Assembly: GCA_019057385.1 (NCBI GenBank)
Contig: JAHQJS010000004.1
Coordinates: 514,118 to 578,117 of the forward strand
Origin: Candidatus Borrarchaeum weybense
GTDB lineage: Archaea; Asgardarchaeota; Sifarchaeia; Borrarchaeales; Borrarchaeaceae
DNA length: 64,000 bases
Direction: 5' to 3'
Positions 1-48,860 of the stretch are shown piece by piece. Below the pieces are notes generated by a model. The model worked only from the letters and a program-made list of their open reading frames with translations, did not search any database and had not been told where the DNA came from. Numbering within the stretch: position 1 is the stretch's first letter; each line of letters opens with the position of its first letter. Made by a program: the position numbers and the translations under genes.

Positions 1-417
1 GGGCAAGAGATTTTGTTTTTACATAAAATTTTGGAAGGTGGAACTGACAAAAGTTACGGAGTGGAAGTTGCACGATTAGCAGGGCTTCCTCAAACAGTTG
101 TTCGTAGAGCCAAGGAGATTCTAGATGTTTTTGAAAGTTCAGAAACTCCAACAGTTCTGAAATCAAAAAAGCTTCCGACCGATAAACCTGAATTAACACA
201 GCTAACACTTTTTGATGTTAACAAAATAAACTCTAATAAAAAAGAAAGGCTAGATCCAATGGAAGAAATTTCTCCAGAGCATATTCTGGGTGATAAGATA
301 ATTAATGAACTTAAAAAAATAGATCTAGATAATATTACGCCTTTAAATGCCCTGAATGCACTCCATGAATTGAAAAAGAAACTAAATGAAGAAGATAATA
401 AATACACTTATGAGTGA
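1..417 (+). CDS. mutS: DNA mismatch repair protein MutS, C-terminal fragment (gene begins upstream of the window)
   Basis: The frame is open from base 1 (GQEILFLHKILEGGTDKSYGVEVARLAGLP...). This motif is typical of the MutS ATPase and C-terminal region. The stop at 415-417 overlaps the mutL start. Confidence 0.85.
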   Translation, partial: GQEILFLHKILEGGTDKSYGVEVARLAGLPQTVVRRAKEILDVFESSETPTVLKSKKLPTDKPELTQLTLFDVNKINSNKKERLDPMEEISPEHILGDKIINELKKIDLDNITPLNALNALHELKKKLNEEDNKYTYE

Positions 418-2206
418 TGTCTCTGTGAGTCAAATTGTTGTTTTATCGGAAGAAATCATCAACAAGATCTCCGCGGGAGAAGTGGTTGAGCGCCCAGCAG
501 CAGTCGTTAAAGAATTAGTCGAAAATGCAATTGACGCAGGTGCAACAAAAATCATTGTTAAAATCCAAGAAGGAGGAAAAAAATCAATCTATGTTTCAGA
601 TAATGGAGTTGGAATGTCACAAGAGGACGCTGAGTTAGCTCTCCTTCGATATACAACCTCAAAAATAAGAACTGCTAAAGACTTAACGAATATTTCTACA
701 TTAGGCTTTAGGGGTGAAGCATTAGCAAGTATTTGCGCTGTTTCACGGCTGGAATTAGTTACAAGGACTGAAGATCAAACTACTGGTACTAAAATAATTG
801 CAGAAGGTGGAATAATCAAAGAAAAATCAGAAGTTGCTTCTCCAATTGGAACGATGATCTTTGTTCGTGATCTCTTTTACAACACACCTGCACGAAAAAA
901 ATTCTTGAAAATTGCCCCAACTGAGTTTAACCATATTTTTAACGTTATACGGCATTATGCACTACGTTACTCAACTATCTATTTCCAACTTATTCATAAT
1001 GATAGAGATATTATTAGTACTCCAAGTAAAACACTTCTTGGTAGAATTACTGATATTTACGGGAAAGATATTGCTCAAGAGATGATTTCAGTCGATTATT
1101 CAGCAGATGACATTAAAATAACTGGATATATCTCAAGTCCAAATTTAACACGAGGAGATACCTCTTATCAATCGATTTTTGTGAACTCTAGATATATTAA
1201 AGATAGCCAACTTACGAAGAGTATTGAAAATTCTTATGGTCAATTACTGGAAAAAAGGAGACATCCCATTATAATTCTCAATTTAGAAATAAACCCAAGA
1301 GAAGTCGATGTTAATGTTCATCCAACAAAACGTGAAATACGTTTTAGCAAAGAAAAACTAGTTTTTGAGGCGCTTAAAACATCAATTTCTAACGCACTAG
1401 CCGAAAAGGACCATATTCCTTCCGTAGAGATTAGAGAAGAACCGCTTTTAAGAACAACTATACATCCAGATACTCTAATCGAAGAAACTGTTGGTCATGA
1501 TACAAGTAAGTCAGAAGATATTATGAAAATGACTATGAGTAAATCCGAAAGCCCTTCAATAACTCCACCACTACGTTACTTCGATTCATCAGCAGAGTCT
1601 GTAGCACCTCTAAGGAAGGACTTTACTATAGATAAATTAGGGGATCTAGTCCTACTAGGTCAGGCTCATTTCACTTATCTTATATTTCAAGACAAAGAAG
1701 GGCTAATACTTGTAGATCAACACGCTGCAGATGAGCGTGTGCAACTTGAAAAACTAACCAAAAAATACATGAACTCAATAGATACTCAGGACCTTCTCGC
1801 CCCAATAAAGATAGAACTTAAATCACACGAAAGCGAGATGCTAAAAGACAATTTAGATATTTTAAATGAATATGGGCTCAATATTGAACACTTTGGAGGA
1901 ACAACATTCGTTATTCGTAGTCTGCCAATCGGTCCTGTAGATGTTAAGGAAATAAAGGAAATGGTTGAGGAATTACTCTCATCTGGCGATCTGGAAAACA
2001 AAGAAACACTGAAGGAAGCAATAATTAAATTGATGGCGTGTCACTCCGCCATAAGGGCCGGTGAGAAACTTTCAGTCGATACAAGCCTATCCTTAATAAA
2101 AAATCTATTTCAAACTGAAAATCCATATACCTGTGCTCATGGTCGACCAACTCTGATACGAATAAGTAGTAAACAATTGGAGAAGTTATTTAAACGAATT
2201 GCTTGA
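386..2206 (+). CDS. mutL: DNA mismatch repair protein MutL (GHKL ATPase)
   Basis: N-terminal ISAGEVVERPAAVVKELVENAIDAGAT and DNGVGM GHKL motifs, plus a C-terminal dimerisation region. An alternative start ATG at 410 overlaps the mutS stop (ATGAGTGA). Confidence 0.9.
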   Translation: MKKIINTLMSDVSVSQIVVLSEEIINKISAGEVVERPAAVVKELVENAIDAGATKIIVKIQEGGKKSIYVSDNGVGMSQEDAELALLRYTTSKIRTAKDLTNISTLGFRGEALASICAVSRLELVTRTEDQTTGTKIIAEGGIIKEKSEVASPIGTMIFVRDLFYNTPARKKFLKIAPTEFNHIFNVIRHYALRYSTIYFQLIHNDRDIISTPSKTLLGRITDIYGKDIAQEMISVDYSADDIKITGYISSPNLTRGDTSYQSIFVNSRYIKDSQLTKSIENSYGQLLEKRRHPIIILNLEINPREVDVNVHPTKREIRFSKEKLVFEALKTSISNALAEKDHIPSVEIREEPLLRTTIHPDTLIEETVGHDTSKSEDIMKMTMSKSESPSITPPLRYFDSSAESVAPLRKDFTIDKLGDLVLLGQAHFTYLIFQDKEGLILVDQHAADERVQLEKLTKKYMNSIDTQDLLAPIKIELKSHESEMLKDNLDILNEYGLNIEHFGGTTFVIRSLPIGPVDVKEIKEMVEELLSSGDLENKETLKEAIIKLMACHSAIRAGEKLSVDTSLSLIKNLFQTENPYTCAHGRPTLIRISSKQLEKLFKRIA

Positions 2207-2243
2207 AAACCAATCCACCTTGAAGATCTGAAGTTCGATATTC

Positions 2244-3626
2244 TTAAATACATATTAAGATGATCAGATCCATCACATTAGTGCCAGTTGGCCCAGTAAG
2301 TACCAAATCGCTGAGCTCTTGGAAAAAATGATAGGCGTCGTTGTTTTCTAAACGTTTTTGGGGCTCTAATCCCTTCTCTTTTGCTCTCAATATTGTTGAA
2401 GGACCAATAAGCGCACCTGCTGCGTCAGTAGGTCCATCGATTCCATCAGTACCAATGGATCCAAAAGCAACTCCTTCCATTTTTTCTCCTATTTTTATGG
2501 CCGCCCCCAAACTGACCTCTTGATTTCTCCCTCCCTTTCCAGTTCCAGTTACTGTTACTGTCGTTTCTCCACCTGCTATGATGGCACATGGTTTAGGGAG
2601 TGGGTGTCCATGCGTATGAATTTCTTTTGCTATTGCTGCAAAAGCAATGCCGATTTGACGCGCTTCACCTTCCAATGATGATGTTAGAATGAGGCTATTT
2701 AATCCAAGTTCTTCTGCTCTAAGTTTCGCAGCAGTACAAGCGCTAAAATTACTACCGATTATAACGTTATGGCAAGAAGAAGTCATTTCTTTGGGTGTTT
2801 CTGGGATTTTTTGAGCGAGTCCATCATTTAAACGTCTTTTTATAGTCTCTGGTGTCTCATCCCAGAGTTTATAGCGCTGAAGAATTGCAATTGCGTCTTG
2901 ATAATGGGTTTCATCAGGGGCAGTAGGACCTGATGCAATGGAATCCAGAGGATCACCTACCACGTCTGATAAGATTAAACTAATCAATGAAGCGCCATGT
3001 TTACAAGCATGCTTTGCAAGTTGCCCTCCTTTAAAATTCGAAATGTGTTTTCTGATGGTATTAATCTCGTGAATTGTAGCTCCAGATTTTAGAAGATCCT
3101 TTGTGATTTGCTGTTTTTCTTCTAACGAAATTTCTCCTGCTGGAGCTGGCATTAAAGCAGATCCACCTCCTGAGATCAATGCAATAATCAAATCATCCTC
3201 TTTAGCTTGACCCACTAAGTCTAACATTTTCTTAACACCATTTATGCCATCAATTGAAGGAACTGGATGATCTGCTTCATTCAAGTTAATTGACTTCGTT
3301 TTAAAACTTGATTTTGTCCCTCGTAAGATATTTATCTCACCTGAGGTTATTTTATCTCCCAGGATTGCTTCCAATGCTTCTGCCATAGTTCCACTAGCTT
3401 TACCTCCCCCTACAACAAAGATCCTTTGCAGTTTTTTGAGATCAAAGTCATATTTTTCAATATGTAAGATGTTATCTTCTCGCTCAAATTGTACATATTT
3501 TTGGATTGCATTTTTTGGATCGACTGAATTAATTGCCTTTTCTACGATATCAAGTAAGATCTCTCTGCACTGTTTGTCCTTTTCATTACGTGCATTTTTA
3601 ATTAATTCTGCTTTGTTCTTAATCAA
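2244..3626 (-). CDS. Glycerate 2-kinase / hydroxypyruvate reductase-like protein (DUF4147 + MOFRL family)
   Basis: Motifs VVGGGKASG, ISGGGSAL, GGETTVTVTGTGKGGRNQE and GTDGIDGPTDAAGA are typical of MOFRL glycerate kinases. Confidence 0.8.
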   Translation of the reverse strand: MIKNKAELIKNARNEKDKQCREILLDIVEKAINSVDPKNAIQKYVQFEREDNILHIEKYDFDLKKLQRIFVVGGGKASGTMAEALEAILGDKITSGEINILRGTKSSFKTKSINLNEADHPVPSIDGINGVKKMLDLVGQAKEDDLIIALISGGGSALMPAPAGEISLEEKQQITKDLLKSGATIHEINTIRKHISNFKGGQLAKHACKHGASLISLILSDVVGDPLDSIASGPTAPDETHYQDAIAILQRYKLWDETPETIKRRLNDGLAQKIPETPKEMTSSCHNVIIGSNFSACTAAKLRAEELGLNSLILTSSLEGEARQIGIAFAAIAKEIHTHGHPLPKPCAIIAGGETTVTVTGTGKGGRNQEVSLGAAIKIGEKMEGVAFGSIGTDGIDGPTDAAGALIGPSTILRAKEKGLEPQKRLENNDAYHFFQELSDLVLTGPTGTNVMDLIILICI

Positions 3627-3733
3627 TACAAAAACCCCGCAAACATAAGGTAAGTATTTTTAAATGAACTCTTAAGTTGTCACATAACATTTTCAAAAAC
3701 TTCCATATAAAAAAATCGTAGGAACGAGATGTC

Positions 3734-5869
3734 ATGGCTTTTGAACTTGATCCAACACTCTTAACCGTCATTATAGTTTTCTTTATACTCATATCAATTG
3801 AAGCTATTCCGATCGTCGCATTAGCATTAGAGTTCTTTGTGGTGCTTTTACTTACTGCAGTTCCTCCGCTTCTCACGATAATCATCGGGACGGTTGGCAT
3901 TGTTATAGGCTCCATGATCTCGTATTCCTACACATATCTACTCTCCGAGAAAGTCCCATGGATACGTAAACTTTTAGAAAAGAAGAAGATTGAACGTATG
4001 ATAAGGTTTTTTAACAAACGTGGCGATCCACTTCTTATTGCAACTCGTTGCATACCATTTCTTCCATTTAGACCTATGAATTTCGTTTGTGGGGCAACAA
4101 AATACCCTTGGAAAAAATATTTCCCTATAACACTGTTTTGCTCATTTGTTCGAGTGTCTATAATAGTTGCTATTGGTCAAGAGATCTTAAAACTTAAGGT
4201 GAGTTTACTCCCTCTGTTTATTGTTCTGTTCATAGTCATAATCATTATTGGCATTATAGTTGACAGAGTTCTAAGTAAGGTCATAGCTAAAGAAACACTT
4301 GAAAGCACAAGTCAAGAAATTCCATCTGTCCCGACATCAGCAACAGATTCCTGCGAATCTATTGAGAAAACGCATGGGTTGAAGCGCCTAGAAATTTATG
4401 CGGCACGTATGTGGAATTTACTTAATGAAGGGAAGTCCTTCTTTTTGATATTTTCCGTTTTTATTATCTTATTGCGTGTAATAATTATTCCTTTTCTTAT
4501 TTTGGTGGGCGCAAACTTTTTTCCTATGGACGGTCTCTTAATATTATTAATTAATTATAGCAATACTAGCCTTATTTCATCGGTCTTGTTTATAATTCCT
4601 TTTCTCGTCGTGTTCATAATCTTTGATTTTCCTCTTAAGTATCGAGTATTTCTTTGGGTTCTTTTAGGTGTTTTCTTCCTTATTTTTCAGTATATTGATT
4701 TAATCTCTTCAATTTTGATCTTAATATTCTATTTTTTCTTCACCGTTTTTCTATGGGGGTCTATTTATTATCATTTTCGAGTTGGCACGTCTCTCACAAA
4801 TTTTAGAAGATTTTGGAAACTCGTCTTAGAAAACCCTGATTCGACAAGTGGAAATTCACTCGAACAACTTCCAAAAATTTTTATCACGGTATCTTTGTTT
4901 ACGTTTTTACTTCGTAATCCTATAACTAACTTGACTGATAATTTATTCCTACCTTACCTTATTTTATTGATACTTGCAGTTTCTATGGGACTTTTATCTC
5001 ATCTACTCTACTTTAGGATTATCCCAAGAGAAACTGGAGTTCATACAACAATTATAAATAATGAACGACTTGTTGACCGCATATATGTCATTGTAATTGA
5101 TGGATGCCGAAGGGATCGGTTAGAAGAAGCTGATACTCCTACTATTGATTATTTACGTAACGAAGGAACTGAATATTCTAATATGAGGACAGTTTACCCT
5201 GCAAGGACAGTTGTTTGTTTCTCAAGCATGTTTACTGGTGCTGGCAAAGAAAAACATGGTGTGACAAGTAATTTGGTACTCAAGTCGTTTTTCGGGAAAA
5301 AAGGAGTTAAAGTGGAATCTATTTTCGATACACTAGAAAAAAATAACATGAAAGGTCGGATGGTTGCAATTGCGCATCTTATTGATGCATTTGGAGAAAA
5401 AATTGTACAAACAGTGAGCGCTGTTTGTCCCAACGACCTAATCGATGGAGTCATTTTTAAGACAGCAGAATCAATCATTGAAAAAGAAGATCCAGAGTTA
5501 CTCGTAATTCAACTCATTTCAACTGATCAGACGGGTCATGTATTCGGCAGTTCATCCCTAGAGTATCTGCAAAAAATTGAAGAAACTGATAAAAAGATTT
5601 CAGAATTTCTTGAATGGCTGAAGGAGAAGGATAAACTTAAGAATTCAGTCATCGTCATTATGGCTGATCATGGGCAATCTCATCGAGGTATCGGTGCACA
5701 TGGACACTGGGACAAAGGCGAACGAGAAGTGCCTTTTATTATATGGGGTCATACAATTAAAAAAGGTGTAAAAATCGATAAAGAAGTCAGAATATTAGAC
5801 CTTGCACCAACTTTAAGTTATCTATTTGGAATTCCTCCACCCAAAGAGTCAATCGGCATTGTTCTCTAG
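3734..5869 (+). CDS. Fusion membrane protein with an N-terminal DedA/VTT-like domain, a polytopic region and a C-terminal alkaline-phosphatase-superfamily (phosphodiesterase/pyrophosphatase-like) domain
   Basis: The N-terminus has TM helices and a DedA-like RCIPFLPF segment. The C-terminus has VIVIDGCRRD, YPARTVVCFSSMFTG, STDQTGHVFG and MADHGQSH metal-site-like motifs. Confidence 0.6.
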   Translation: MAFELDPTLLTVIIVFFILISIEAIPIVALALEFFVVLLLTAVPPLLTIIIGTVGIVIGSMISYSYTYLLSEKVPWIRKLLEKKKIERMIRFFNKRGDPLLIATRCIPFLPFRPMNFVCGATKYPWKKYFPITLFCSFVRVSIIVAIGQEILKLKVSLLPLFIVLFIVIIIIGIIVDRVLSKVIAKETLESTSQEIPSVPTSATDSCESIEKTHGLKRLEIYAARMWNLLNEGKSFFLIFSVFIILLRVIIIPFLILVGANFFPMDGLLILLINYSNTSLISSVLFIIPFLVVFIIFDFPLKYRVFLWVLLGVFFLIFQYIDLISSILILIFYFFFTVFLWGSIYYHFRVGTSLTNFRRFWKLVLENPDSTSGNSLEQLPKIFITVSLFTFLLRNPITNLTDNLFLPYLILLILAVSMGLLSHLLYFRIIPRETGVHTTIINNERLVDRIYVIVIDGCRRDRLEEADTPTIDYLRNEGTEYSNMRTVYPARTVVCFSSMFTGAGKEKHGVTSNLVLKSFFGKKGVKVESIFDTLEKNNMKGRMVAIAHLIDAFGEKIVQTVSAVCPNDLIDGVIFKTAESIIEKEDPELLVIQLISTDQTGHVFGSSSLEYLQKIEETDKKISEFLEWLKEKDKLKNSVIVIMADHGQSHRGIGAHGHWDKGEREVPFIIWGHTIKKGVKIDKEVRILDLAPTLSYLFGIPPPKESIGIVL

Positions 5870-5909
5870 TCAAGCGCCTCAAATATTCCCCTATGTTTGA
5901 AGAACCCAC

Positions 5910-8099
5910 ATGGTCCTTAAAATGAGGTTAAATGCAATTAAGAAGTACCGGATTGGTCTTGTCGTCGTTGTTATCATAAATTTTCTATTGACACTACCAA
6001 GACTGTATGAGGGAATTCCTTCTGGAATCGATTCAAACAGCCATTTATTCAAATGTATCTATATTTTTGAGTTTACAAAAAGGTTCGGTCATTTTCCGAG
6101 TTGGAGCGATGCATGGTACGGTGGCTATCCGATTTCTCTATTTTATCCTCCATTGAGCTACCACATTGCGGTTTTTGTAATGCAATTTGGCGTCCCGCCT
6201 CTCCTCGCTTATAAACTAATTGAAATCATCTTCTACGCATTAGTAACTCCGTTAGCAGTTTATACGTTAACCCAGGGACTTAAATTTAAAAAAGGAGTGG
6301 GGGTTTTTGCAGCGTTATTGTTTAGTGGAATACCTGAAGTTTTATTAAACTTGATGAGGATGGATAGATACCCAAACATCATAGTTATTCCACTCGTTTG
6401 TCTATTCTTTGGAATATTCTTCCGTATGAAAGGAACAAAATATTTTGTATTATCTTACGTTTTGTTAGGCAGCATTTTTCTTACTCACCATCTGACCGCT
6501 GTGTACATCAGCTTGCTTTTTCCAATCTATATTCTTTATCAGAGATTGAATGGAGTCAAAATCTCAAAGAGTTTTCTAGTAAGTTTATCTGTGCTTATTT
6601 GTGCATTTATTATCGCGGCATTTTGGACATTTCCATTTGTGCTAAACTTAAATCAATTACAAGAAAATCCCTTTATTAACAGGTCCATCCTGGGATCACA
6701 TACCCTCTTTGACACATTAACAGATATCAAATCTATTGGACTTGGACAAGTTTTGCTTATGCTTTTCGCAGGCGTGTTTTTAGTGGTTGCGTCATTCAAA
6801 AAGCATCTTGAAGGATTGCTTCAGAGATTTTTTCAAAAAAGTAGTTTCTTTCTTGTATTCTTCTTTTCAATTCTTGCTTTTGTCTCATTCTCCTCCTATA
6901 TAATCTTCCAAGATCTTTTAGACATCATATATTTGCTTTTACTTGGCTTTGTAGTTCTAACTCTGATTTTCCAGATTCCTTCAATCAATGCAACAAAGTT
7001 TTTTGAAAAGAAAGCATCATCGGTAATTTTCTGTCTTATCTGGTTTGTCCTATTTTTTTGGCTAGGACAAGGCGATGAAGCATTATTATATCAATTATTA
7101 CCTTATTGGCAAAAATTGGACCCTGACCGTTTTATCCTGTTTTCTTCGATTCCTTTAGCAATCCTTGGAGGATTCATATTAAATCATATTCTAACTACTT
7201 TTAATTCTGTCAACATCCACTCATTCTATCCTGTCCATACGAAAGAGCGGAGGTTTCTAGTATTCACTGGTTTGATGATATCCCTACTCGCTTTGAATTC
7301 CATTCAATTACAAAGGCATACTACGGATCCCACTTTGTATCGTGAAAATCATGAGTTTCCAAATGAAGTGTTTACTTATTTTGAAAGTCAAAAGGATTCT
7401 GGAAGAATCTTACCGATTCATTGTCCTAACTGGATCTATTCTTTTCCGGTAATTGGTGGTAATAAGTCGATCATTGACGGCTGGTACCCACAAGGACGTT
7501 TATTAACACCAATTCGATCGATAAGATCTTATTCTATTAATTACCTGTCTCTAGACGCAAATAGAACAGAAATTTGGAGTAACCTTATTGAAAATGCTGA
7601 AAATCTTGCTATTGGATGGATACTTCTTGGAGATGCACAGTATGCAGACCTTATTCCACTAAATGAATTCACTTTGGAGTTATACGCTGATGGCATCTTT
7701 ATTTACAAAGCGAAATTCAAAGTCGGCATGATTACTACAAATCCAGATTACTTGATCGATAAATGCGTACTCAGAAGGTATTCCGCTGAAAAATTTGTGA
7801 TTGAGGTTCAGGACCTTACTAGACCTGCAGAAATAATCATCAAGGAGGCATACTTTCCATATTGGACAGCCTATGTCGATGGCATCCCAGTAGATGTTTC
7901 AAAAAATGTAGATGGATTTATTCAAGTGAATATAAATCAAACTGGAGATTTCACTATTGAATTAAAATACGAAGAAAAGTTTGCCTTCGCTGCTGGAGTA
8001 TCTTTTCTAGCCTTGTTTGGAATTCCCATTCTTTTAGAGATCTTTCGAAGAAATGTCTATGCAAAGAATACTCGACTGAGGAAACTTTTTAATTTGTGA
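5910..8099 (+). CDS. Large polytopic membrane protein, GT-C-like (putative glycosyltransferase or oligosaccharide-handling protein)
   Basis: More than 12 predicted TM helices are followed by a soluble C-terminal domain and a terminal TM helix. It sits in a glycosylation gene context. I recognised no definitive motif. Confidence 0.4.
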   Translation: MVLKMRLNAIKKYRIGLVVVVIINFLLTLPRLYEGIPSGIDSNSHLFKCIYIFEFTKRFGHFPSWSDAWYGGYPISLFYPPLSYHIAVFVMQFGVPPLLAYKLIEIIFYALVTPLAVYTLTQGLKFKKGVGVFAALLFSGIPEVLLNLMRMDRYPNIIVIPLVCLFFGIFFRMKGTKYFVLSYVLLGSIFLTHHLTAVYISLLFPIYILYQRLNGVKISKSFLVSLSVLICAFIIAAFWTFPFVLNLNQLQENPFINRSILGSHTLFDTLTDIKSIGLGQVLLMLFAGVFLVVASFKKHLEGLLQRFFQKSSFFLVFFFSILAFVSFSSYIIFQDLLDIIYLLLLGFVVLTLIFQIPSINATKFFEKKASSVIFCLIWFVLFFWLGQGDEALLYQLLPYWQKLDPDRFILFSSIPLAILGGFILNHILTTFNSVNIHSFYPVHTKERRFLVFTGLMISLLALNSIQLQRHTTDPTLYRENHEFPNEVFTYFESQKDSGRILPIHCPNWIYSFPVIGGNKSIIDGWYPQGRLLTPIRSIRSYSINYLSLDANRTEIWSNLIENAENLAIGWILLGDAQYADLIPLNEFTLELYADGIFIYKAKFKVGMITTNPDYLIDKCVLRRYSAEKFVIEVQDLTRPAEIIIKEAYFPYWTAYVDGIPVDVSKNVDGFIQVNINQTGDFTIELKYEEKFAFAAGVSFLALFGIPILLEIFRRNVYAKNTRLRKLFNL

Positions 8100-8153
8100 A
8101 CATATTCTTGTGGTGTATCATTCACTAGAACAATTAAACCATATCCCCCTATT

Positions 8154-8909
8154 ATGCAGAAGCATCATAAGACGGCGAAATCAATGGAAAAAACTAAAAA
8201 TAAAAAGTTAGCCAAAAAAAAGTCACTTTTTATTATGATACCTGCTTATAACGAAGAAAATTCGATCGCTGAAGTCATTCATAGAGCTAATAATATTAAA
8301 ATAAACAATGTTGAAATTATCACTCTTGTCATAAATGATGGCTCTAAAGATAACACTGAACGTTTAGCAGCAGAATCAGGAGCAGATTTAATTGTGTCAC
8401 ATAAAGTTAATAGAGGTCTAGGGGCAGCAATACGGACTGGTGTCGAAAAATCATTAGAAAACGGGGCTGATATGGCTGTTATGTTAGATGCTGACGGTGA
8501 GTATACACCAGAAGAAATTCCAGCATTAATTAAATTGATTTTACGCAATGAAGCTGACTATGTGTTAGGATCACGATTTATGGGATCAATACTTAAAATG
8601 AAAGTCCAAAGACGACTTGGAAACCTGTTTTTGACGGCACTTCTTATGTTATTTACGGGGCGACGAATTTCAGATGGACAAACTGGTCTACGGGCATTTA
8701 GTAAACGTGCTCTACAAAATTTGGAGATTGTGCACGATTATAATTATGCACAAGTACTTACAATCGATTTACTAAGAAAAGGATATCGACTCAAGGAAAT
8801 TCCGATTTCCTATTCTTTCAGAAAAACAGGAAAAAGCTTTGTACGCTTTAAATCATATGCGTTGAAAGTTTTTCCAGCAATGATTAAAGCACGACTCCGG
8901 CGTTTGTGA
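8154..8909 (+). CDS. GT2-family glycosyltransferase (dolichyl-phosphate sugar synthase-like)
   Basis: Motifs IMIPAYNEENSI, NDGSKDNT and DADGEY are the GT-A/GT2 signature. A T6 run follows the stop directly. Confidence 0.85.
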   Translation: MQKHHKTAKSMEKTKNKKLAKKKSLFIMIPAYNEENSIAEVIHRANNIKINNVEIITLVINDGSKDNTERLAAESGADLIVSHKVNRGLGAAIRTGVEKSLENGADMAVMLDADGEYTPEEIPALIKLILRNEADYVLGSRFMGSILKMKVQRRLGNLFLTALLMLFTGRRISDGQTGLRAFSKRALQNLEIVHDYNYAQVLTIDLLRKGYRLKEIPISYSFRKTGKSFVRFKSYALKVFPAMIKARLRRL

Positions 8910-9040
8910 CTTTTTTCGTCCTCATACCTGTCATCCATTCCCGTCGTAGAAGGCGTCAGACCTCTCGGGTTCAGTCTCATGCACAAGAACGTGTTCTCCG
9001 CGTGTTGCGAGGAACATTCCGTCTTGTAGTTGGCATATTG
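8902..9040 (-). ncRNA. Structured RNA element, copy A (unclassified family; omega-RNA-like by similarity to 24596-24862)
   Basis: About 85-90 percent identical to copy C (reverse-oriented at 48731-48860) outside one hairpin, which differs by compensatory changes. The antisense strand would carry T5-T8 runs, so the minus strand is favoured. Confidence 0.65.
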
Positions 9041-9104
9041 TCCAGCAACTATGAAAAGTAAAAGTATTATGCAGATCATTTTTTAAGCTCCATGTTAAAT
9101 ACTT

Positions 9105-9644
9105 CTAAAAGCCTCCTAAGTCATCTATGTAGAGATTAACCATTAAGAGTAAGTGATTTTTTAATGATGAAAAACCGAATTTGAGTGCTTCATTGATCCG
9201 ATTAAGTGTTTGAGACTTATAGATATAGGAATAGAGGGCATAAAGAGAGTATTGGCGTGTTTCGATCTCTTTTTTTAGGGTATCAAAATGAATTTTTGTT
9301 GTTTCAGTTACGCGGTAACGTGAAGGAGCGGAGAACCTGAATTTTCGTGAGATGCTGGAGGAAAATCTATCGTAGTATTGTAGGGTGGAAAGTAAAGGTA
9401 ACTCTCTGTAATCTAATTCGTAATTATGATGATTCTTAACCAATTGATAGATATAGTCATCGGAGATTTTGACCTCTGTATAGATTTTACTTGGATGTCT
9501 TTCAGTATTGACGAAATCGTGGAGAAGCATGGCGATCATCAGTTTTTGCATTGCATCTGAGAAGTTTGTTGGAAGCATTTTTCTGATCTTGATTTTTTTT
9601 GGAGAATAGAGGGGTTTCTTTTGAAGTTTTTCATTTCCTGCCAT
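9105..9644 (-). CDS. Helical protein with an HD-like motif (MLLHDF, NHHNYE); probably the C-terminal part of a frameshift fusion with 9539-9916
   Basis: This ORF overlaps the upstream Cas6-like ORF by 106 nt in the -1 frame. An HD dipeptide in a hydrophobic helix is the only catalytic-looking motif. Confidence 0.45.
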   Translation of the reverse strand: MAGNEKLQKKPLYSPKKIKIRKMLPTNFSDAMQKLMIAMLLHDFVNTERHPSKIYTEVKISDDYIYQLVKNHHNYELDYRELPLLSTLQYYDRFSSSISRKFRFSAPSRYRVTETTKIHFDTLKKEIETRQYSLYALYSYIYKSQTLNRINEALKFGFSSLKNHLLLMVNLYIDDLGGF

Positions 9645-9916
9645 TGTATTTGCCCCATGCCTTCATGGGTGTATCTTCCGATGCTATCTAGGGCAAGTGC
9701 TTCATCAAGTTTATATTCTGGAGCGATGACTTCAATATTGCCATACCAAGCCCTAAAAGTCATAGGTGCTCGTCTTTCACCCTTTGTAAGTTTGCCAAAC
9801 ACTCGTGGGCGTCCTTGAATGGTGACGATACCGATGTTTTTGAGTCCAAACCGATTTCTCTTAGCGACTACAGGTGTTTTAGTTATCCCCAGTAATTTAA
9901 TCCAGTTTTTTGTCAT
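9539..9916 (-). CDS. Cas6-like RAMP fragment (single RRM-like fold with a glycine-rich loop)
   Basis: FRAWYGNIEVIAPEYKLDEALALDSIGRYTHEGMGQIQW resembles the C-terminal Cas6 signature (G-x-G...GMGQ). An AGAGGAA SD lies upstream of the ATG. Confidence 0.5.
   Translation of the reverse strand: MTKNWIKLLGITKTPVVAKRNRFGLKNIGIVTIQGRPRVFGKLTKGERRAPMTFRAWYGNIEVIAPEYKLDEALALDSIGRYTHEGMGQIQWQEMKNFKRNPSILQKKSRSEKCFQQTSQMQCKN
9593..9600 (-). other. A8 homopolymer forming an A_AAA_AAA slippery heptamer at the junction of the two overlapping ORFs
   Basis: The minus strand reads CTC CAA AAA AAA TCA. A -1 slip (or one extra A) gives ...SILQKK-IKIRKMLPTNF..., a 270-aa fusion. Confidence 0.5.
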
Positions 9917-9960
9917 CGTTATTCCTCTTTATGAATAGTATCCCGTTATTAACATTTTAA

Positions 9961-10010
9961 CGGGATATCTAAACGTATCGGTTTTTTTACCTTTTCTTCG
10001 TAAATTGGAT
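9961..10010 (-). promoter_or_regulatory. Promoter block upstream of the Cas6-like ORF (TATA-like GTTTAGATATCCCG, an A-rich tract, then a hairpin ATCCCGTT/AACGGGAT and an SD)
   Basis: About 70 percent identical to the block upstream of the RAMP gene (11023-11092). The TATA-like box lies about 45-55 nt before the ATG at 9916. Confidence 0.5.
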
Positions 10011-10145
10011 ATCACTTTTATCGTCCCTTGGCTGTCATCCATCCCCATCAATACTAGAGGCGTGGGACCTCTTAGATGGTTCAGTCTCATACGCAAGAAC
10101 GTGCTCCTCACAATGTGAGAGAAGCATACCGTCATGGATGAGAAA
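10011..10145 (-). ncRNA. Structured RNA element, copy B (same family as copies A and C)
   Basis: Shares the blocks CACGUUCUUG.G.AUGAGACUGAAC, AAGAGGUC...CCUCU and GGAUGGAUGACAG with copies A and C. It lies between the RAMP gene and the Cas6-like ORF. Confidence 0.65.
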
Positions 10146-10193
10146 AAAGAAGAGTAGAAGAATATTGCAGAGTCTTCGATCATTTATCTCCCT

Positions 10194-10979
10194 TCAAGCG
10201 TCTAATGCGTCTAAAATTGTCCTCCAATCCTCAATTTCATCAAATTCAATTGATTCCGCTTCGATTTCTTCATTGACCTTATAGATACCATTGTTTCTTT
10301 TTACGGTCTTGATAACTTCAATTTTTAGAAGATCAAAGTCCAAAAGTTTAACCTGTCCATAGCCTGCGTTCTTACCGCCTCCAAGCGTTTCGATGTATAG
10401 CAATGACTCCATGAGGAATTTAATCTCTTCTTTAGTCAGAAGAGTTACATCAATAGAGAATGTGAAATAGCCACTGAAATAACTTTCACGAAAATCTTGG
10501 ATAGGTATACCCTCATAACTTAACGCTATCCTATTTTCGCTCAAGATATGAACTCTTTGCACCGCTACATCAGTATTATATTCTTTATGAGAGATAGAAG
10601 TAATAGGATCAGCATAGACAGAAATCCGGGATTCTTCGCGAAAACTACCAAAGATTCTTCGGAGAATACAGGGAGTATCACACGCACCAAATGGATGAAA
10701 CCCGTTAGGAATGAGTTTAGTGCCGTCTTTGAGTTCGGTTTTTTCACTGGTATGACAGACTTCGATACCACAATCTTGAGCCAGCGACATGGCGGCATGT
10801 CTTAGCATGCCACGCAAACCTTTGATATAATATACTTTGGTATTGAAGGTCTTTTCTCCATTTATATAAGGAATTTCACCGAGAAGCAACATGGTAGAAT
10901 TTTTCTGTATGGAGGCATTCAGGGGTTTGGCAATAGGGGTAAAGGCTCGAACCACAAGTTGTTTTTTTGTTTTTTTCAT
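10194..10979 (-). CDS. RAMP superfamily protein, type III-like Cas7 (Csm3/Cmr4-like)
   Basis: IKGLRGMLRHAA (the G-x-lR motif after beta1), the Cys pair plus CILRRIFGSF (Csm3-like C..C..FGS) and LGGGKNAGYGQVKL (the C-terminal glycine-rich loop). Confidence 0.65.
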   Translation of the reverse strand: MKKTKKQLVVRAFTPIAKPLNASIQKNSTMLLLGEIPYINGEKTFNTKVYYIKGLRGMLRHAAMSLAQDCGIEVCHTSEKTELKDGTKLIPNGFHPFGACDTPCILRRIFGSFREESRISVYADPITSISHKEYNTDVAVQRVHILSENRIALSYEGIPIQDFRESYFSGYFTFSIDVTLLTKEEIKFLMESLLYIETLGGGKNAGYGQVKLLDFDLLKIEVIKTVKRNNGIYKVNEEIEAESIEFDEIEDWRTILDALDA

Positions 10980-11022
10980 CTTTCTAACCTCGTTTAAATC
11001 TCAATAATAACTTTTGCAACTA

Positions 11023-11092
11023 GATATATAAACCTATCGCTTTTTCTACCTTTTTTTAGTAAAATGGATGATTTTATACGCTTCTTTTTGAA
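11023..11092 (-). promoter_or_regulatory. Promoter block upstream of the RAMP gene (TATA box TTTATATATC, A-rich tract), paralogous to 9961-10030
   Basis: The minus-strand GGTTTATATATCTAG lies about 45 nt before the ATG at 10979, and a GAGGT SD lies 7 nt before the ATG. The block aligns with the 3' tail of RNA copy B. Confidence 0.55.
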
Positions 11093-11535: not shown

Positions 11536-14500
11536 TTAAGAACTACCTAGGAGTTTTCGGCGTTTCATAACTAAATTCACTAGACCTGGTACGAAATCTT
11601 CATTTATTTGGACTATTGAGCCAAGTGATGTGTCCTTTTCTCGAAAAATACCTGCAGAGCAGATTCTTGCCCATGCATTACGATTCTCCTTATACGGACG
11701 AAGCTTGGCCGAGAAAATCTCTTTGTTGGGAATATTCCCCTGAATATCAATAAACTCTTCCAAGACATCATATAGCACTTCTTTAATAGGGCCACGGATT
11801 CCTCCCCGGCCAAAAATGGTTAATTCATCGGGAATATCGCTTGAACCTGCAATTAGCAATGCCAATTTCTCTGAATCGGATACTTCAGGAATTTTATCGA
11901 ATCTAAACTGCCAATCTGCGAATATCCTCATTATATAAGGCTTTTTTGCCAATTTTAATTGTGTTTCTGACATCTTCGAGGAATCTAAGCCATATTTCAA
12001 AGCGGCGGTCTTTAACTCATCGTTTGTAAACTCATTTAAAATTAAACTTGCTTTATCAATTATTGAATTCGAAGGCTTTCCTCGGAAAATATAGCTGTTT
12101 AAATCATGCTTTACACGATTAATATATTCATTAGCGCTCCAGTCAGCGGTTCTACAAGATATAATAGTAGGTACCCCTTCGGTGGCAAGACGCATTACAG
12201 TGTCTTTTAGCAGAGGTAAGATGAATTCTGGTCTTTCCACTTCATCTATGCCATCAATTATAACAAGTAGATTTGCATTTTTTTCCTTTAATGTGCTAAA
12301 CATCTGTTTCAATACATTAAATGCATCGAGCATGACAATAGATCCAAAAAACGCTTGTACAGTCTTGGTTACGTTCTTTCTAGCGCTGAAAAAAAGAGGA
12401 ACAATTTGTCCTTTAACGGTGATAGTTTTCATGAGTTCATTTGCCTTATGTGCAAGAAGCCATGTCTTCCCGATGCCCATGTCCGAAAGTAAAAGGAAAA
12501 TTTTACGCTCCTCGCCGATTGGTAGTGTAGCAATTTCAATAAATTCATCAATTGCCTTTTCGGCATCAACGCGAGGTTCATATTTTTCATCACTATAGGC
12601 GATTTCGAATAAACTCGAAAATGAAACTGTGTTGAGAAAACATTTTGATAGAAAAATAATATTTTCGGTGTTTAGATCCTTAGATATATTTTTAGATAGT
12701 ATACTAACTACACGATCAAGATTTTTTTCAAGATTCTTGATATTTGTACGTACATCATCTAATCGTCTCTTAGTATCTTCTGTATTCGATTCCAATAGAT
12801 TTATAATGACATTAATACTTTCTTCGAGTTCTTGCTTTACATCTAAAGAAATATTACTTATTTCATCTTCCATCCATGCTCTTAGTGTTTCAATTGCTTC
12901 GAAAGGTTTTTTTGAAGCGAAATCAATTGCTTTATTGAATCCATTTATGATCGGACGAAGAGAAGTATCGATAATCAATTTTAGTTTGTCCTCATCAATG
13001 TTAGCATTTATTTCCTCAAGTTTCTTATTTATTAGATCTTCGATTCCTCTGAAGGATGCTTTCTTCATTGCTTCCTCAATATTTTCGGTAATCGATGTTT
13101 CATCAACCTTGATACCAAAAGAAGAAATTTTATTCGATATCAACTTTCCTATATACCCTGCAGCCGGAGGACAAACCATGCCAACGAGCATAGAACCCAC
13201 AGCAGGCAAACATTTGAGGCCTATCTCGCCAAGTGTTTTTCCTGCCTTCTTAAGTATATCTCTTATCTTCTTGAGACGTCCTTCATCTTTTTCAGGTTGA
13301 TAACTCTCTGAAATCGCATCAGAATCAACTTCTTGATCGTTTGTCAGAATAGGAGGCGTAATTGGAGTTTGTGGTTGAGTTGTTCGAGTTTCTATTTCTT
13401 TTTGTTCTTCAACAATTATTTTCTTAGTTTTTTCAATTTCCTCCATTTCTATTGTCTCTGTTTGCTCTAGCGTTTCACTTGTAAGAAGCGCTTGTGCCTC
13501 TTTTGCTTTGTAGATGGCCCCTGGTTCACCTTTTATTGTGTATTTGATCTCTACCATTCGATCTGGTTGGATATTCTTGATGGACCATTCTAAGACGGTG
13601 AAGCTCTTGCCTTCGACCAGTCTCGGTCGTTGATCAGTCAGCTCTGGCGAACTTGAAACCAGTATAAAGCCTTCAGGCAAGATATCGGCGATGGTGATGT
13701 CCTGAAGGGTAACTTCGTCATCAGGCTTCAGTTTATTATGATAGTAGATAGTAATAGCATATTCACCTTCTGTATCACCTTCTTGGATCGATTTTCCAAC
13801 ACGAGCTTTACGCCAAACATGCTCCTTTACAGTAAGTTTATCTTCTGCAATGGCACGAAGTTCTTCATGTTCGGAAAATGGTTCTAAAACATTACCTACT
13901 ACTGAAACTGGTACAACAAGTTCGACTCCAGGTTCCGGTTCTACTGCTTGAAGGAGGTAATCTATTTTAACACAATCCTTTGGATTAATAGCTTTAATTG
14001 CAACCAGTTTATTAATATTTGAGAGGGATAAAATCAATTTTCTTTCCTTTGATAAATCTCTCCCCCCTTTCTCAGTAATTTTTACTGCTCCAGTAATATC
14101 TTGTTGATAATCTGATTCTCGTATAAGACTTGCTTTGATAGAGTCGATATTAAAACCTGGAGGGATCGTTTCATAAAAAGTAAGATCATTTAAAGGTGCA
14201 GAACCAGTATTACATGCCTTTAAGGTAGTCTTAATAGGATTTTCTTCGATTGCGTTAATTCTTTTTACTTCATATGATTTTTCTACTTTTATATCTGCTA
14301 CTTTAACTAAACCACCATATTGTACTACAGAGCCAGTGAGTTCTCTCAGAAAATTGTTTTTAACTGAAAAGTCAACTTTTTGTCCAAAGCTAGGAAATTC
14401 CATAATTGGATCTTCTTTTGGATCAGGGAACACGAAAGTCTTGGTCCATTTATTCTCGGTGTCAGGACTAAGAGTTACGTAAAGGCTATCCTCACTGATT

Positions 14501-15549
14501 ACTAAATGTTCTCGTCGATCTGATCTTTTTCTAAATATAGTTTCTTCGGCAGTCTGTCGATAGACTTCCACTTCGCGGAGCATTATTTCAAACGTGGAAA
14601 GGTTTTCAAATTCAATCGCACAGTTCCAGCGACCCGGGACGTTGTCAATCTCATCTTTATCGATCCAAGTAACATTTTTGGTGTAGCCTTCTAGACCAAG
14701 AAAAATAATATCTGACATCGTTGTATCTGGTGTTGCGAAACTTATAGAAATTTTGCCTGTATTTAGTGGGACTACTGTTTCTGCTTTTAAAAAAACTCCA
14801 AATGTTATTGATTTTGATTCATTAGGAGCTAAACTAAATCCAGACCAAAAGATCTTGTCAGTCTCTCTTTTATAATCTCCATCTGCTCCCTTTAAGTCCA
14901 TAACTTCCCTGAAAGCTTCAGGCAATTCTTTAACAAAAATAATGTTTTCTAAATTCGTTTTTGATTTATTAATAACCATAATCGTAACTCTGACCGCAGT
15001 TTCTTTATTTCTTATTAGTATTTTTGGCATAGTCTCTGATTCTGGTTCAGTATCTATGTATTCCTCAATTATCAGAGGTGATTCAATATCTTTTGAAACA
15101 GGAGTTCTCAAAGAATAATTTTTAAAGAATAATTCGCTGGGTCTAAGTTCTTGGATGTTTATATTGCACAGACCCTCCCTAGCTGATAAATTGGTCTTTG
15201 AAATATTTTCCCAGTAACTATCGAGATTCCAAACGCTATCTCGTTCGTTTGGATTGTAAAAACCAACACTTCCTGATGTTTTAATAGTTTCTGTTCCATC
15301 TGCTTGAAAAACAGCATCTATTCTTTCAGAGTTGATAACAAGAATTCGTTTATTATTTTTAGCGCCAACTATTTTCCAGGCTTTAGGTATATCTTTCTCA
15401 GGCATATGTTCCAAGTCTAGTTTTTTAAGATCGACAACTACCCTTCCCTTTGGTATCTCGAATAAAATTGGACCTTCAAGTATTTTTGGAACATAATTTG
15501 CCATTTCGGCATTTCCTCTTCTATTTTTCCTGACTATTTGTTTAGACAA
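11536..15549 (-). CDS. Giant STAND-type NTPase with N-terminal beta-sandwich (DUF11/CARDB-like) repeats, a coiled-coil/hydrophobic linker and a C-terminal NACHT-like P-loop domain
   Basis: Walker A LLLSDMGIGKTWL and Walker B NLLVIIDGIDEV. Repeated segments such as NTGSAPLNDLTFYETIPPGF and ITIADILPEGF are typical of DUF11-like Ig folds. Confidence 0.7.
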   Translation of the reverse strand: MSKQIVRKNRRGNAEMANYVPKILEGPILFEIPKGRVVVDLKKLDLEHMPEKDIPKAWKIVGAKNNKRILVINSERIDAVFQADGTETIKTSGSVGFYNPNERDSVWNLDSYWENISKTNLSAREGLCNINIQELRPSELFFKNYSLRTPVSKDIESPLIIEEYIDTEPESETMPKILIRNKETAVRVTIMVINKSKTNLENIIFVKELPEAFREVMDLKGADGDYKRETDKIFWSGFSLAPNESKSITFGVFLKAETVVPLNTGKISISFATPDTTMSDIIFLGLEGYTKNVTWIDKDEIDNVPGRWNCAIEFENLSTFEIMLREVEVYRQTAEETIFRKRSDRREHLVISEDSLYVTLSPDTENKWTKTFVFPDPKEDPIMEFPSFGQKVDFSVKNNFLRELTGSVVQYGGLVKVADIKVEKSYEVKRINAIEENPIKTTLKACNTGSAPLNDLTFYETIPPGFNIDSIKASLIRESDYQQDITGAVKITEKGGRDLSKERKLILSLSNINKLVAIKAINPKDCVKIDYLLQAVEPEPGVELVVPVSVVGNVLEPFSEHEELRAIAEDKLTVKEHVWRKARVGKSIQEGDTEGEYAITIYYHNKLKPDDEVTLQDITIADILPEGFILVSSSPELTDQRPRLVEGKSFTVLEWSIKNIQPDRMVEIKYTIKGEPGAIYKAKEAQALLTSETLEQTETIEMEEIEKTKKIIVEEQKEIETRTTQPQTPITPPILTNDQEVDSDAISESYQPEKDEGRLKKIRDILKKAGKTLGEIGLKCLPAVGSMLVGMVCPPAAGYIGKLISNKISSFGIKVDETSITENIEEAMKKASFRGIEDLINKKLEEINANIDEDKLKLIIDTSLRPIINGFNKAIDFASKKPFEAIETLRAWMEDEISNISLDVKQELEESINVIINLLESNTEDTKRRLDDVRTNIKNLEKNLDRVVSILSKNISKDLNTENIIFLSKCFLNTVSFSSLFEIAYSDEKYEPRVDAEKAIDEFIEIATLPIGEERKIFLLLSDMGIGKTWLLAHKANELMKTITVKGQIVPLFFSARKNVTKTVQAFFGSIVMLDAFNVLKQMFSTLKEKNANLLVIIDGIDEVERPEFILPLLKDTVMRLATEGVPTIISCRTADWSANEYINRVKHDLNSYIFRGKPSNSIIDKASLILNEFTNDELKTAALKYGLDSSKMSETQLKLAKKPYIMRIFADWQFRFDKIPEVSDSEKLALLIAGSSDIPDELTIFGRGGIRGPIKEVLYDVLEEFIDIQGNIPNKEIFSAKLRPYKENRNAWARICSAGIFREKDTSLGSIVQINEDFVPGLVNLVMKRRKLLGSS

Positions 15550-24595: not shown

Positions 24596-24862
24596 CTATC
24601 TCCTCCTTTAACCTGCGTTACAGGAGGTCGGTTCTCCTCGCCAAAGTTATCAGTCAGTACTCTACGATGATCACTGAGCGTTTCCTCTCTGTTTAAACCA
24701 CCGTTTACAGAGCAAGGGACTAGAGAAGCATCCCTTGGTGTGTTCTTTAACTCTCCTGATAACGTAGATACCGTCATACACTATATGACCTCTCTTAGGC
24801 TAATCAACTAATTGCTCTCAGGTCTCACGGAACAAGCCCCTACCCTTTAGGGTGGTGGGGTA
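24596..24862 (-). ncRNA. Structured leader in the canonical omega-RNA (HEARO-like) position upstream of the IscB remnant
   Basis: GC content is locally higher and there is no credible ORF. Hairpins are dense: GUCAUA/UAUGAC, CAAGGGA/UCCCUUG, CUCUGU/ACAGAG, AGGAG/CUCCU and CCUG/CAGG. The leader ends at the SD of the PLMP ORF. Confidence 0.6.
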
Positions 24863-24869
24863 ATTGACT

Positions 24870-48409: not shown

Positions 48410-48730
48410 AGAAAAGAAAAGAGAATTGAAGAAAATTAGTTTTTACAGAAGTATGTAATGCTGGGTCCTTTTTTATTACTTCATTAGTTTTCAGGTCTTT
48501 GAACTTTTCCATTCCCTATTTACTTTATTGTAGTTCAAGGCCATCTGATGGACTCGCTAATACTTCTCATGCTATTACCTTGCGGACCTTTTACAGTTAG
48601 TCTTTTCATGTTTCACGTATACATTATACGATAAAACGTACAATCTTTTCCTTTAGACGTATTATTGCTCCACACAAAATATATAAGATCAAAGATATAT
48701 GTTCAAATGGATTTAGTAAACTATAGGAAA

Positions 48731-48860
48731 CTTGAACAAGGCGGAATGCTTCTCTTGTAGCGAGGGGAGCACGTTCTTGTGCATGAGACTGAACACGAGA
48801 GGTCTGACGCCTTCTAAGACGGGAATGGATGACAGGCAGGGGACGAAAAAGGTCAAAAAC
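48731..48860 (+). ncRNA. Structured RNA element, copy C (stand-alone locus, same family as copies A and B)
   Basis: It is the reverse complement of copy A apart from the compensatory hairpin. TATA-like AAAATATATAAG lies at 48677-48688 upstream, and a hairpin plus T7 lies downstream at 48905-48934. Confidence 0.7.

Follow-up and report, generated by a model that had tools for sequence, protein, structure and literature searches.

Nowhere is the survival of class 1 CRISPR effector proteins without an array clearer than in ARAMP (Asgard RAMP) and its haloarchaeal cousin HRAMP. RAMP proteins are RNA binders, so the missing RNA is the central gap in our picture of both systems. In the passages on ARAMP of two articles that cite Makarova et al. 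2020 (CRISPR J 3:156), the system comprises Cas5 and Cas7 homologs together with nucleases, often joined by a distinct Cas1; it is classed as a CRISPR derivative, is found in Asgard archaea and has no array (PMC8730458, PMC12669027). Many Asgard archaea are said to carry such derivatives, as distant relatives of HRAMP (PMC8730458). The mechanism of ARAMP was called enigmatic in a 2022 review, and the system was still array-less in a 2025 classification (PMC8730458, PMC12669027). No RNA component is mentioned in the ARAMP descriptions of these two articles; the primary paper of Makarova et al. 2020 lies outside this comparison. We analyzed a 64,000-nucleotide (nt) stretch of Candidatus Borrarchaeum weybense (contig JAHQJS010000004.1, positions 514,118 to 578,117), hereafter the window, which contains an ARAMP cassette together with copies of a conserved RNA element of 126 nt. 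This element is a structured RNA, and it is linked to and co-inherited with ORF2, the second gene of the cassette. On these sequence comparisons we propose, with a probability of about one half, that it is the fixed RNA ligand of the two cassette proteins, and a candidate for the missing RNA of ARAMP.

The cassette is encoded on the minus strand, in the order TATA block, Cas7-like RAMP gene, RNA copy B, second block, ORF2 and RNA copy A. This order had been proposed in an initial annotation made from the sequence alone, and its coordinates and motifs were all present at or near the positions given there. The RAMP gene (10194..10979, 261 amino acids (aa)) is preceded by a conserved block (11011..11056) that has TTTATATA at ~11025-11032 and is shared with the upstream regions of the related loci L001 and L002. 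RNA copy B (10010..10140, 131 nt) occupies the intergenic region between the RAMP gene and ORF2. A second, paralogous block (9962..9995, AAAAGGTAAAAAAACCGATACGTTTAGATATCC) stands 5' of ORF2 and is kept after the B-type copies of L001, L002 and L034. The two blocks, which share AAAAGGTAnAnAAAnCGATAnGTTTAnATATC, had already been described as a paralogous pair, and their TATA-like motif suggests that they are archaeal-type promoters. ORF2 (9105..9916) is followed by the leader of copy A (9031..9100), with a Shine-Dalgarno-like GGAG, an ATG (9077-9079) and, some 25 nt 5' of the RNA, a TATA-like TTTTCATA, and then by copy A itself (8905..9030, 126 nt), whose 3' end overlaps the end of a convergent glycosyltransferase gene. 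Copies A and B are approximately 75% identical.

As regards its proteins, the pair encoded in the window matches the published descriptions of ARAMP at the level of membership. The initial annotation had regarded the arrangement as unlike any described CRISPR-Cas subtype; since the proteins match ARAMP, that statement was wrong for the protein part. The protein cassette belongs to an already known system, and its companion RNA appears new.

The structure of the RNA was assayed with a covariance model (R1) built from 10 copies. Applied to the window, to five genome loci and to 50 metagenome contigs, the model found 67-71 copies. Copy A scored 140.7 bits (E 2.3e-38) and copy B 116 bits (E 3.6e-31). 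Over 62 distinct copies, standard pairs were present in 92.2% of cells, versus 40-56% when the partners were slid by 1-3 columns. Double-sided changes were seen in 16 of the 34 pairs, and none of 500 shuffles equalled the observed covariation score. Most of the covariation is carried by the first hairpin, P1, where 8 of 10 pairs covary. Little variation is seen in the inner hairpin or in the long-range helix CGUUCUU/GGGGACG, and what there is runs from G-U to A-U or G-C. Because G-U is exchanged for A-U or G-C at many pairs, the fold can form on one strand only, the sense strand of the ARAMP genes. The flanking elements are, as had been noted, a conserved, structured, non-CRISPR RNA. B-type copies carry two 3-nt insertions (CAU and GUA), and the 3' flanks of the element are whatever lies downstream. 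Rfam gave nothing above 22 bits for the element, in which neither a hammerhead core nor a C/D-box order nor attC core sites were seen on reading by eye. The RNA core had no exact matches in IMG/VR, and a viral origin was rejected on this result.

Such an element might also be a small protein gene. Its peptide of ~60 aa, with a hydrophobic N-terminus, would then be a membrane peptide or a type I or CreT-like toxin, and its structured mRNA would be kept in check by the RAMP complex, the whole forming an addiction module that guards ARAMP. CreTA modules inside cas operons are a precedent for this. More than 25 distinct copies have a Shine-Dalgarno sequence with an ATG, at -49 in the A-type and at -43 in the B-type; the -49 form is conserved in 20 distinct copies. 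Gene callers predict these open reading frames (ORFs). Leader entropy by codon position (1.15, 0.77 and 1.40) is coding-like, over the 49-nt leader only, and the leader would encode a hydrophobic peptide. In the core, on the other hand, variability by codon position was 0.48, 0.62 and 0.56, without any third-position excess. One frame of the element is open, yet stops or frameshifts interrupt it in 9 of 57 copies, the ATG is absent in about a dozen copies, and there is no conserved stop codon. Moreover, the amino acids of P1 change freely and its base pairs are kept. An exhaustive HMMER search with the conceptual peptide recovered 23 clusters only, and all matches but one spurious one were at least 54% identical, so there is no protein-level conservation beyond nucleotide identity. 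The spurious match, P0168 (640 aa, 8 matched stretches), was set aside as an unrelated repeat protein. For the core, a pure peptide gene was rejected because of the periodicity, the stops and frame changes and the absence of remote protein homologs, and we consider a small-protein gene of any kind quite unlikely here.

These tests also have a practical side, since the element is regularly miscalled as protein and has left fake ORFs of 65, 156 and 245 aa in public gene calls. A spurious call at L075:9205-9942 gives a 'protein' of 245-252 aa that spans three tandem RNA copies, the second of which lies in a different frame of the called ORF. Another, at L001:3025-3495, is a 156-aa 'GIY-YIG' with an N-terminal extension read from the RNA, and a third (L001:1922-2119) is a 65-aa ORF covering copy B.

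Linkage between the RNA and the ARAMP genes was assayed in loci chosen by protein alone. Nine loci of the Sifarchaeia/Borrarchaeum (Sif-type) group had enough downstream sequence (the window, L001/L078, L002, L003, L004, L005, L075-77, L079 and L081), and in all nine the element lies 50-90 nt past the ORF2 stop. B-type copies occupy the same position, between the RAMP gene and ORF2, in L001, L002, L034, L048 and L053; A-type copies (after ORF2) and B-type copies are positional orthologs across loci. In 18 distinct loci, ORF2 protein distance and RNA distance were correlated (Mantel r = 0.77, a value reached by none of 5000 permutations); gene and RNA were therefore inherited together. The check for protein-RNA linkage in relatives that had been suggested with the initial annotation thus found it conserved, in position and in co-divergence.

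The element also carries expression signals. TTTATA is found ~25 nt upstream of most A-type and solo copies and is missing from B-type copies, which suggests that transcription of the RAMP gene runs on into the latter. A Shine-Dalgarno sequence, GACGAAAAAGGUGAUA, forms the 3' end of the element. A start codon follows exactly 5 nt past the element for GIY-YIG, a 149-aa protein (p149), rpoH/Rpb5, acyl-CoA dehydrogenase and PGM/PMM, and 17 nt past it for aldehyde:ferredoxin oxidoreductase (AOR). The 3' AAAGGUGAU serves in this way as Shine-Dalgarno of unrelated downstream genes, with the element before a start codon at L061:61-737, L047:319-1610, L038:680-2183, L029:1-1862 and L001:3074-3492. The supply of a Shine-Dalgarno to these genes, the TATA-like box and the solo copies would all suit a generic intergenic element of this lineage, either a repeat or a 5' leader with promoter, structured untranslated region and Shine-Dalgarno, that has no specific relation to RAMP proteins and happens to be common around ARAMP genes. 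Against this, the element follows ORF2 in all nine protein-selected loci and its distances correlate with those of ORF2, and only three copies fall within the 64-kb window, two of them in the cassette. Moreover, a different structured element occupies the same site in distant ARAMP subfamilies, as described below. The odds of a generic leader appear low to us.

In the distant ARAMP loci of Heimdall, Hod and Thor lineages, where the RAMP protein is 41-46% identical, a different covarying stem-loop was found by direct stem search at the same position after ORF2. This Heimdall-type element consists of CCGUU and then a 5-11-bp stem whose sequence is wholly different between loci. The stem closes a conserved loop of 19-22 nt, GAAUGAAAGUAGAAGGGCUGGA, in 7 of 8 instances; in L013 the best automatic stem spans 29 nt. 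Heimdall-type RNAs lie among the loci L007-L016 (for example L009:9666-9726, L016:5033-5087 and L016:9416-9474); one of the eight instances stands alone in L016, ~3 kb upstream, as an additional copy. No Rfam match was obtained for this element (E<=1). A homology between the Sif-type and Heimdall-type RNAs, suggestive by eye, was rejected on nhmmer and R1.

Several loci (L067, L014 and L015) have an ORF2 subfamily of 312 aa. In one of them (L067:5243-8058, together with L068-L070), an rpoE(Rpb7)-spt4-ribosomal protein operon comes immediately downstream of the ARAMP pair with a 312-aa ORF2. The spacer of L067, 176 nt long, showed no clear RNA element.

The first protein of the cassette is of the type III-like Cas7 kind, as had been proposed. 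Its 261-aa ORF carries KGLRGMLRHA, CDTPCILRRIFGSF and LGGGKNAGYGQV, and matches Pfam RAMPs (PF03787) with 35.1 bits (cut-off 22.1) and PADLOC Csm3 with an E-value of 2e-11. Foldseek of its AlphaFold2 model (pLDDT 84) against the PDB gave the type VII Cas7 8z4j as best match (E 1e-7), then Cas7-11, Csm3 and the Cas7 of types IV and I. For type VII and III Cas7 the E-values were 1e-7 to 1e-5 and the TM-scores, normalised to the target, 0.55-0.59. By this predicted model the protein is a Cas7 fold of type III/VII-like kind. Its homologs (n=67) are all from Asgard archaea where named, and C75, H76, H95, C100 and C104 are invariant across 18 of them. Cas7-11-type Cas7 domains hold a comparable cysteine/histidine zinc site, and this analogy suggests that the invariant cluster is a zinc site too.

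With its best structural and profile matches among type VII and type III Cas7, the protein might belong to an ordinary type III (or VII) CRISPR-Cas fragment, with the array and cas10 or cas14 outside the window. The initial annotation had named a complete type III locus nearby as the finding that would make this an ordinary fragment. Housekeeping genes occupy the flanks for at least 8 kb in one direction and 50 kb in the opposite one. Pfam scans of the 43 window ORFs detected none of cas1, cas2 and cas10; the families returned were of a housekeeping kind, among them MutL, glycosyltransferases, PFOR, heterodisulfide-reductase-like proteins and histidine kinases. No CRISPR array was detected in the window by Tandem Repeats Finder, nor by an exact-16-mer periodicity scan in 80 records (728 kb including the window), which cover more than 25 related loci. 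The absence of cas1, cas2, cas10 and array from the 64 kb had been noted before these scans. Beside the protein pair, no cas10 or cas14 is reported in any annotated locus. Since the flanks are housekeeping and the relatives array-free, this explanation is already contradicted, and we regard it as highly improbable.

The second gene is frameshifted in the window. An ORF at 9539-9916(-) carries GRYTHEGMGQI, and an overlapping ORF in another frame (9105-9644(-)) carries LLHDF; its relatives are single ORFs, typically given as 269-270 aa and spanning 255-355 aa across 15 genome loci and 78 database homologs. At the frameshift site (9627..9631) the window reads ATG-AAAAA-C, versus six A in the intact copy of L080, which encodes P0068 and aligns with 98% identity and one gap. 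This bears out the frameshift that had been proposed to join the two ORFs. Since ORF2 differs from an intact copy 98% identical to it by one missing A, the window allele is a recent pseudogene or the product of a homopolymer sequencing error.

None of the 78 database homologs of ORF2 has a Pfam assignment. The N-terminal beta-rich domain of the family ends in an invariant G-rich loop, G..EGxG..W, and the C-terminal helical domain has the invariant motifs LHD, H, SKI, H, D and HLL. Invariant residues are H133-D134, H141, H164, D183 and H255, and there is no invariant histidine in the N-terminal domain. With the AlphaFold2 model of the whole protein (pLDDT 87), Foldseek matches were weak (E ~0.01, probability 0.96-0.98) and dominated by the N-terminal domain. 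They were mostly RAMP subunits of Csm, Cmr, type IV and type VII, and included Cas5-type proteins and one Cas6e (Cse3, E 0.29). By hhalign, the G-rich-loop region is placed on that of the Cas7-like protein (E 8e-4). A sequence profile search of the C-terminal domain against the PDB gave no meaningful matches. From the motifs, a sub-threshold Pfam HD signal, the weak RAMP matches and the hhalign result, it is reasonable to read ORF2 as an N-terminal RAMP domain (Cas5/6-like) fused to a putative HD-like nuclease domain. The earlier reading of a Cas6-like ORF with an HD motif is thus tentatively upheld for the joining of a probable RAMP domain to an HD-like domain; the assignment to Cas6 is not supported, the weak matches being as much to Csm, Cmr and Cas5-type RAMPs.

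Both proteins occur together and in the same order in Sifarchaeia/Borrarchaeum, Promethearchaeota, Heimdall-, Hod-, Thor- and Hermodarchaeota. One ORF2 cluster is labelled Zixibacteria, and every other named match is Asgard. In L075-77, L002/L045 and L001, a gene for a 1323-aa fusion lies directly upstream of the RAMP gene on the same strand, with an N-terminal Hel308-like SF2 helicase and a C-terminal Cas1 domain. The latter was recognised by Pfam Cas1 with 26.4 bits (cut-off 22.3) and by PADLOC Cas1 (E 8e-8). The helicase-Cas1 coordinates are L075:3359-7330, L002:8-2083 and L001:3-797, and a 381-aa protein without family match precedes the gene. Further ORF2 paralogs (P0076, P0078 and P0113) and RAMP paralogs (P0006 and P0008) probably belong to the window's genome; among these paralogous cassettes, that of L001 carries the helicase-Cas1 gene. 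The window cassette has none. The description of the cassette as an orphan is therefore right for the window copy, which lacks Cas1, and does not extend to its sister cassettes. We read the window locus as a Cas1-less, partly decayed ARAMP copy with a frameshifted ORF2. In its duplications and its decay the cassette family resembles a mobile or fast-turnover module, and its fuller copies hold the helicase-Cas1 fusion.

The RNA also occurs away from intact cassettes. The initial annotation had described the cassette as bracketed by structured RNAs; beyond these two copies, R1 located a third, solo copy C (48733..48857, plus strand, 127.2 bits), with a hairpin and T-run after it and no ARAMP gene nearby. 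It is preceded on the same strand by module U (48501..48703), a non-coding segment of ~205 bp that is 79-87% identical to the RAMP upstream regions of L004, L005, L030, L063 and L064. Together, module U and copy C (48501-48857(+)) look like a gene-less cassette derivative. Tandem copies were found in L042, L048, L065 and L075, and 5'-truncated ORF2 remnants that retain the RNA in L028, L035, L037, L042 and L065. At L035:12336-14064, the orthologous site of a related strain (90% identical to positions 1-9623 of the window), the cassette is 5'-truncated near the position of the window frameshift, and a RelE/ParE-like toxin-antitoxin pair follows. In L002:4481-5244, a fragment resembling the C-terminus of p149 comes directly after RNA copy A and the complete gene 327 nt further on, which hints at a rearrangement at the element.

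These contexts bear on a role at the DNA level, in which a mobile ARAMP would recombine or integrate at the element and the helicase-Cas1 integrase would recognise it as a giant repeat. RAMP, ORF2, GIY-YIG and p149 genes would then be repeat-bounded cassettes, and the solo, tandem and truncated copies footprints or non-autonomous derivatives. Some Asgard Cas1 systems may indeed be new mobile elements (PMC8730458). A Cas1 fused to a Hel308-like helicase lies beside several cassettes, the three further ORF2 paralogs are probably in the same genome as the window, and cassettes stand in unrelated contexts. The gene-repeat-gene-repeat layouts (including RNA-GIY-YIG-RNA), the tandem copies, the ORF2 remnants that keep the RNA, the gene-less module U with its RNA, and the fixed 5 nt to the start codons of five unrelated gene families all fit as well. 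However, no Cas1 is within reach of the window cassette and of many others. Terminal inverted repeats, target-site duplications and empty sites were not found in a search that was not exhaustive, and there was no unoccupied orthologous site among the loci examined. The stable positional orthology of A- and B-type copies and the co-divergence with ORF2 argue for vertical co-inheritance over frequent recombination. The lack of matches in viral contigs and the working-looking transcription and translation signals on the element also speak against a DNA site. We hold this role, the main rival to an RNA ligand, to be doubtful, if a serious possibility. A DNA-site role would be compatible with that of an RNA ligand, since CRISPR repeats act as both DNA site and RNA.

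Read most economically, the 126-nt element would be ARAMP's counterpart of a CRISPR repeat, an invariable RNA to which the Cas7-like protein and the RAMP-HD protein bind. Copy A would be transcribed on the sense strand from its own TATA-like box and copy B by read-through from the RAMP gene. The RNA would fold into the covarying hairpin P1 and a long interrupted helix with invariant internal loops. Both RAMP proteins would bind it, and possibly cut it, to form a ribonucleoprotein with the HD domain as effector; transcription, protein-RNA binding, cleavage, HD activity and target are all inferred here. Through the Shine-Dalgarno at the 3' end, binding would couple the complex to the expression of its own and downstream genes. 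As the element has no spacer-like variable segment, the specificity of the complex is proposed to be hard-wired rather than adaptive.

Several observations weigh against this proposal. RNA binding by the partners is deduced from the fact that RAMP proteins are RNA binders, which is its sole basis. A counterpart of the catalytic Asp of Csm3, D33, was sought in the Cas7-like protein, without a rigorous test, and not identified. In ORF2, Pfam HD matches 14 of 28 members with at most 19 bits, below the cut-off of 22. No spacer-like hypervariable single-stranded segment is present inside the element, and given the Shine-Dalgarno, ATG and periodicity of the leader, part of it may be translated. Many copies are solo, tandem or beside unrelated housekeeping genes, which fits a repeat, mobile or regulatory element and not necessarily a RAMP ligand. 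Indeed, the RNA-GIY-YIG-RNA arrangement lies in a 12.5-kb locus (L032) without any ARAMP gene. Finally, homology between the Sif-type and Heimdall-type RNAs was not significant by nhmmer, R1 misses the Heimdall type, and no clear RNA element was found 3' of ORF2 in the 312-aa subfamily (L067, L014 and L015).

Both roles might be combined. The elements would then be the repeats of a spacer-less CRISPR relative, serving both as RNA handle for Cas7 and Cas5-HD and as DNA site for helicase-Cas1, which we consider improbable. If this were true, ARAMP would be a system of gene cassettes that is scaffolded by RNA, mobilises itself and, bringing its own promoter and Shine-Dalgarno, inserts immediately before host start codons, and it would be a living intermediate between Cas1-based mobile elements and CRISPR-Cas immunity. 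Short of this, an RNA at a fixed position that co-diverges with the RAMP-HD gene is a concrete and directly testable candidate for the missing RNA of ARAMP. Its confirmation would show how Cas7/Cas5 scaffolds can be re-used with a fixed RNA, and would bear on how repeats, Cas1 and RAMP effectors first met.

Other features of the window touch the cassette less closely. Directly upstream of the cassette, on the same strand, 11536-15549(-) encodes a protein of 1337 aa that combines DUF11 repeats with a NACHT/STAND NTPase at the C-terminus. This protein was rejected as a conserved ARAMP partner, being beside no other ARAMP locus examined. The sole long tandem repeats of the window are 66-nt coding repeats (44543-44918) within the gene of a leucine-rich repeat protein (43887-45047(+)), which is not a CRISPR array. 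A full-length HEARO RNA (RF02033, the IscB-type omega RNA) lies at 24627-24868(-), with 127.7 bits versus a gathering score of 83. It is unconnected with the ARAMP locus, and may be what is left of an OMEGA element, orphaned or decayed: no IscB-sized ORF lies beside it, the neighbours being a GH57 gene and a 255-aa ORF without Pfam match (24870-25637).

Compared with known systems, the element resembles integron attC sites in its gene-element-gene-element layout, in its strand-specific folding and in ending just before the next start codon. It differs from them in the lack of a tyrosine recombinase and, on direct reading, of the R''/R' core sites (RYYYAAC/GTTRRRY); moreover, it is not a single end-to-end hairpin, and it carries promoter and Shine-Dalgarno signals. 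With CRISPR repeats and transposon-borne guide RNAs (the omega RNAs of TnpB and IscB, and CRISPR-associated transposons) it has in common a structured RNA at a fixed site by the effectors, solo copies, and links to an integrase and mobility. Here, however, 126 nt form a complex fold that includes neither a spacer nor a guide segment, and RuvC and Tn7 machinery are absent. CRISPR repeats are short (~25-40 nt) and separated by unique spacers, whereas the 'spacers' between tandem copies of the element are parts of its own unit or whole genes.

Among protein systems, the type VII and III backbones (the Cas7 of 8z4j and 9j9e, Csm3/Cmr4 and Cas7-11) are the best fold matches of the RAMP protein, whose Cys/His cluster has a parallel in Cas7-11-type Cas7 domains, but sequence similarity is marginal and the cassette comes without Cas10, Cas14, Cas11 or array. 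For type III, Cas10, Cas11 and a repeat-spacer array were found neither in the 43 window ORFs nor in the annotated related loci. For type VII, no beta-CASP (Cas14) gene is adjacent, the sole metallo-beta-lactamase-fold gene of the window lies 28 kb off (38194-38946), and there is no array. The Cas5-HNH variant Cascade of type I-E (8zol) likewise fuses a Cas5-type RAMP subunit to an effector nuclease, and 8zol_D is a weak match of ORF2 (E 0.18, not significant); in the present cassette the nuclease domain is HD-like, not HNH, and there is neither Cascade nor array. HRAMP, in the account that PMC8730458 gives of Makarova et al. 2019 (FEMS Microbiol Lett), is a further parallel: it is array-less, has diverged Cas5 and Cas7 homologs with nucleases, and is predicted to act in non-programmable defence. 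It differs in its haloarchaeal lineage, its HNH and PD-(D/E)xK nucleases and the absence of Cas1, and is set apart here by description rather than by sequence.

The closest system is ARAMP itself. The likeness lies in the confinement to Asgard archaea, the diverged Cas7, a probable second RAMP with a putative nuclease domain, the absence of an array and the type III-like ancestry. The distinct Cas1 of most ARAMP loci also has its counterpart here, in the helicase-Cas1 fusion of the sister loci. The window copy departs from the published descriptions in having no Cas1 and a frameshifted RAMP-HD gene, and the locus as a whole in the conserved structured RNA that accompanies its genes.

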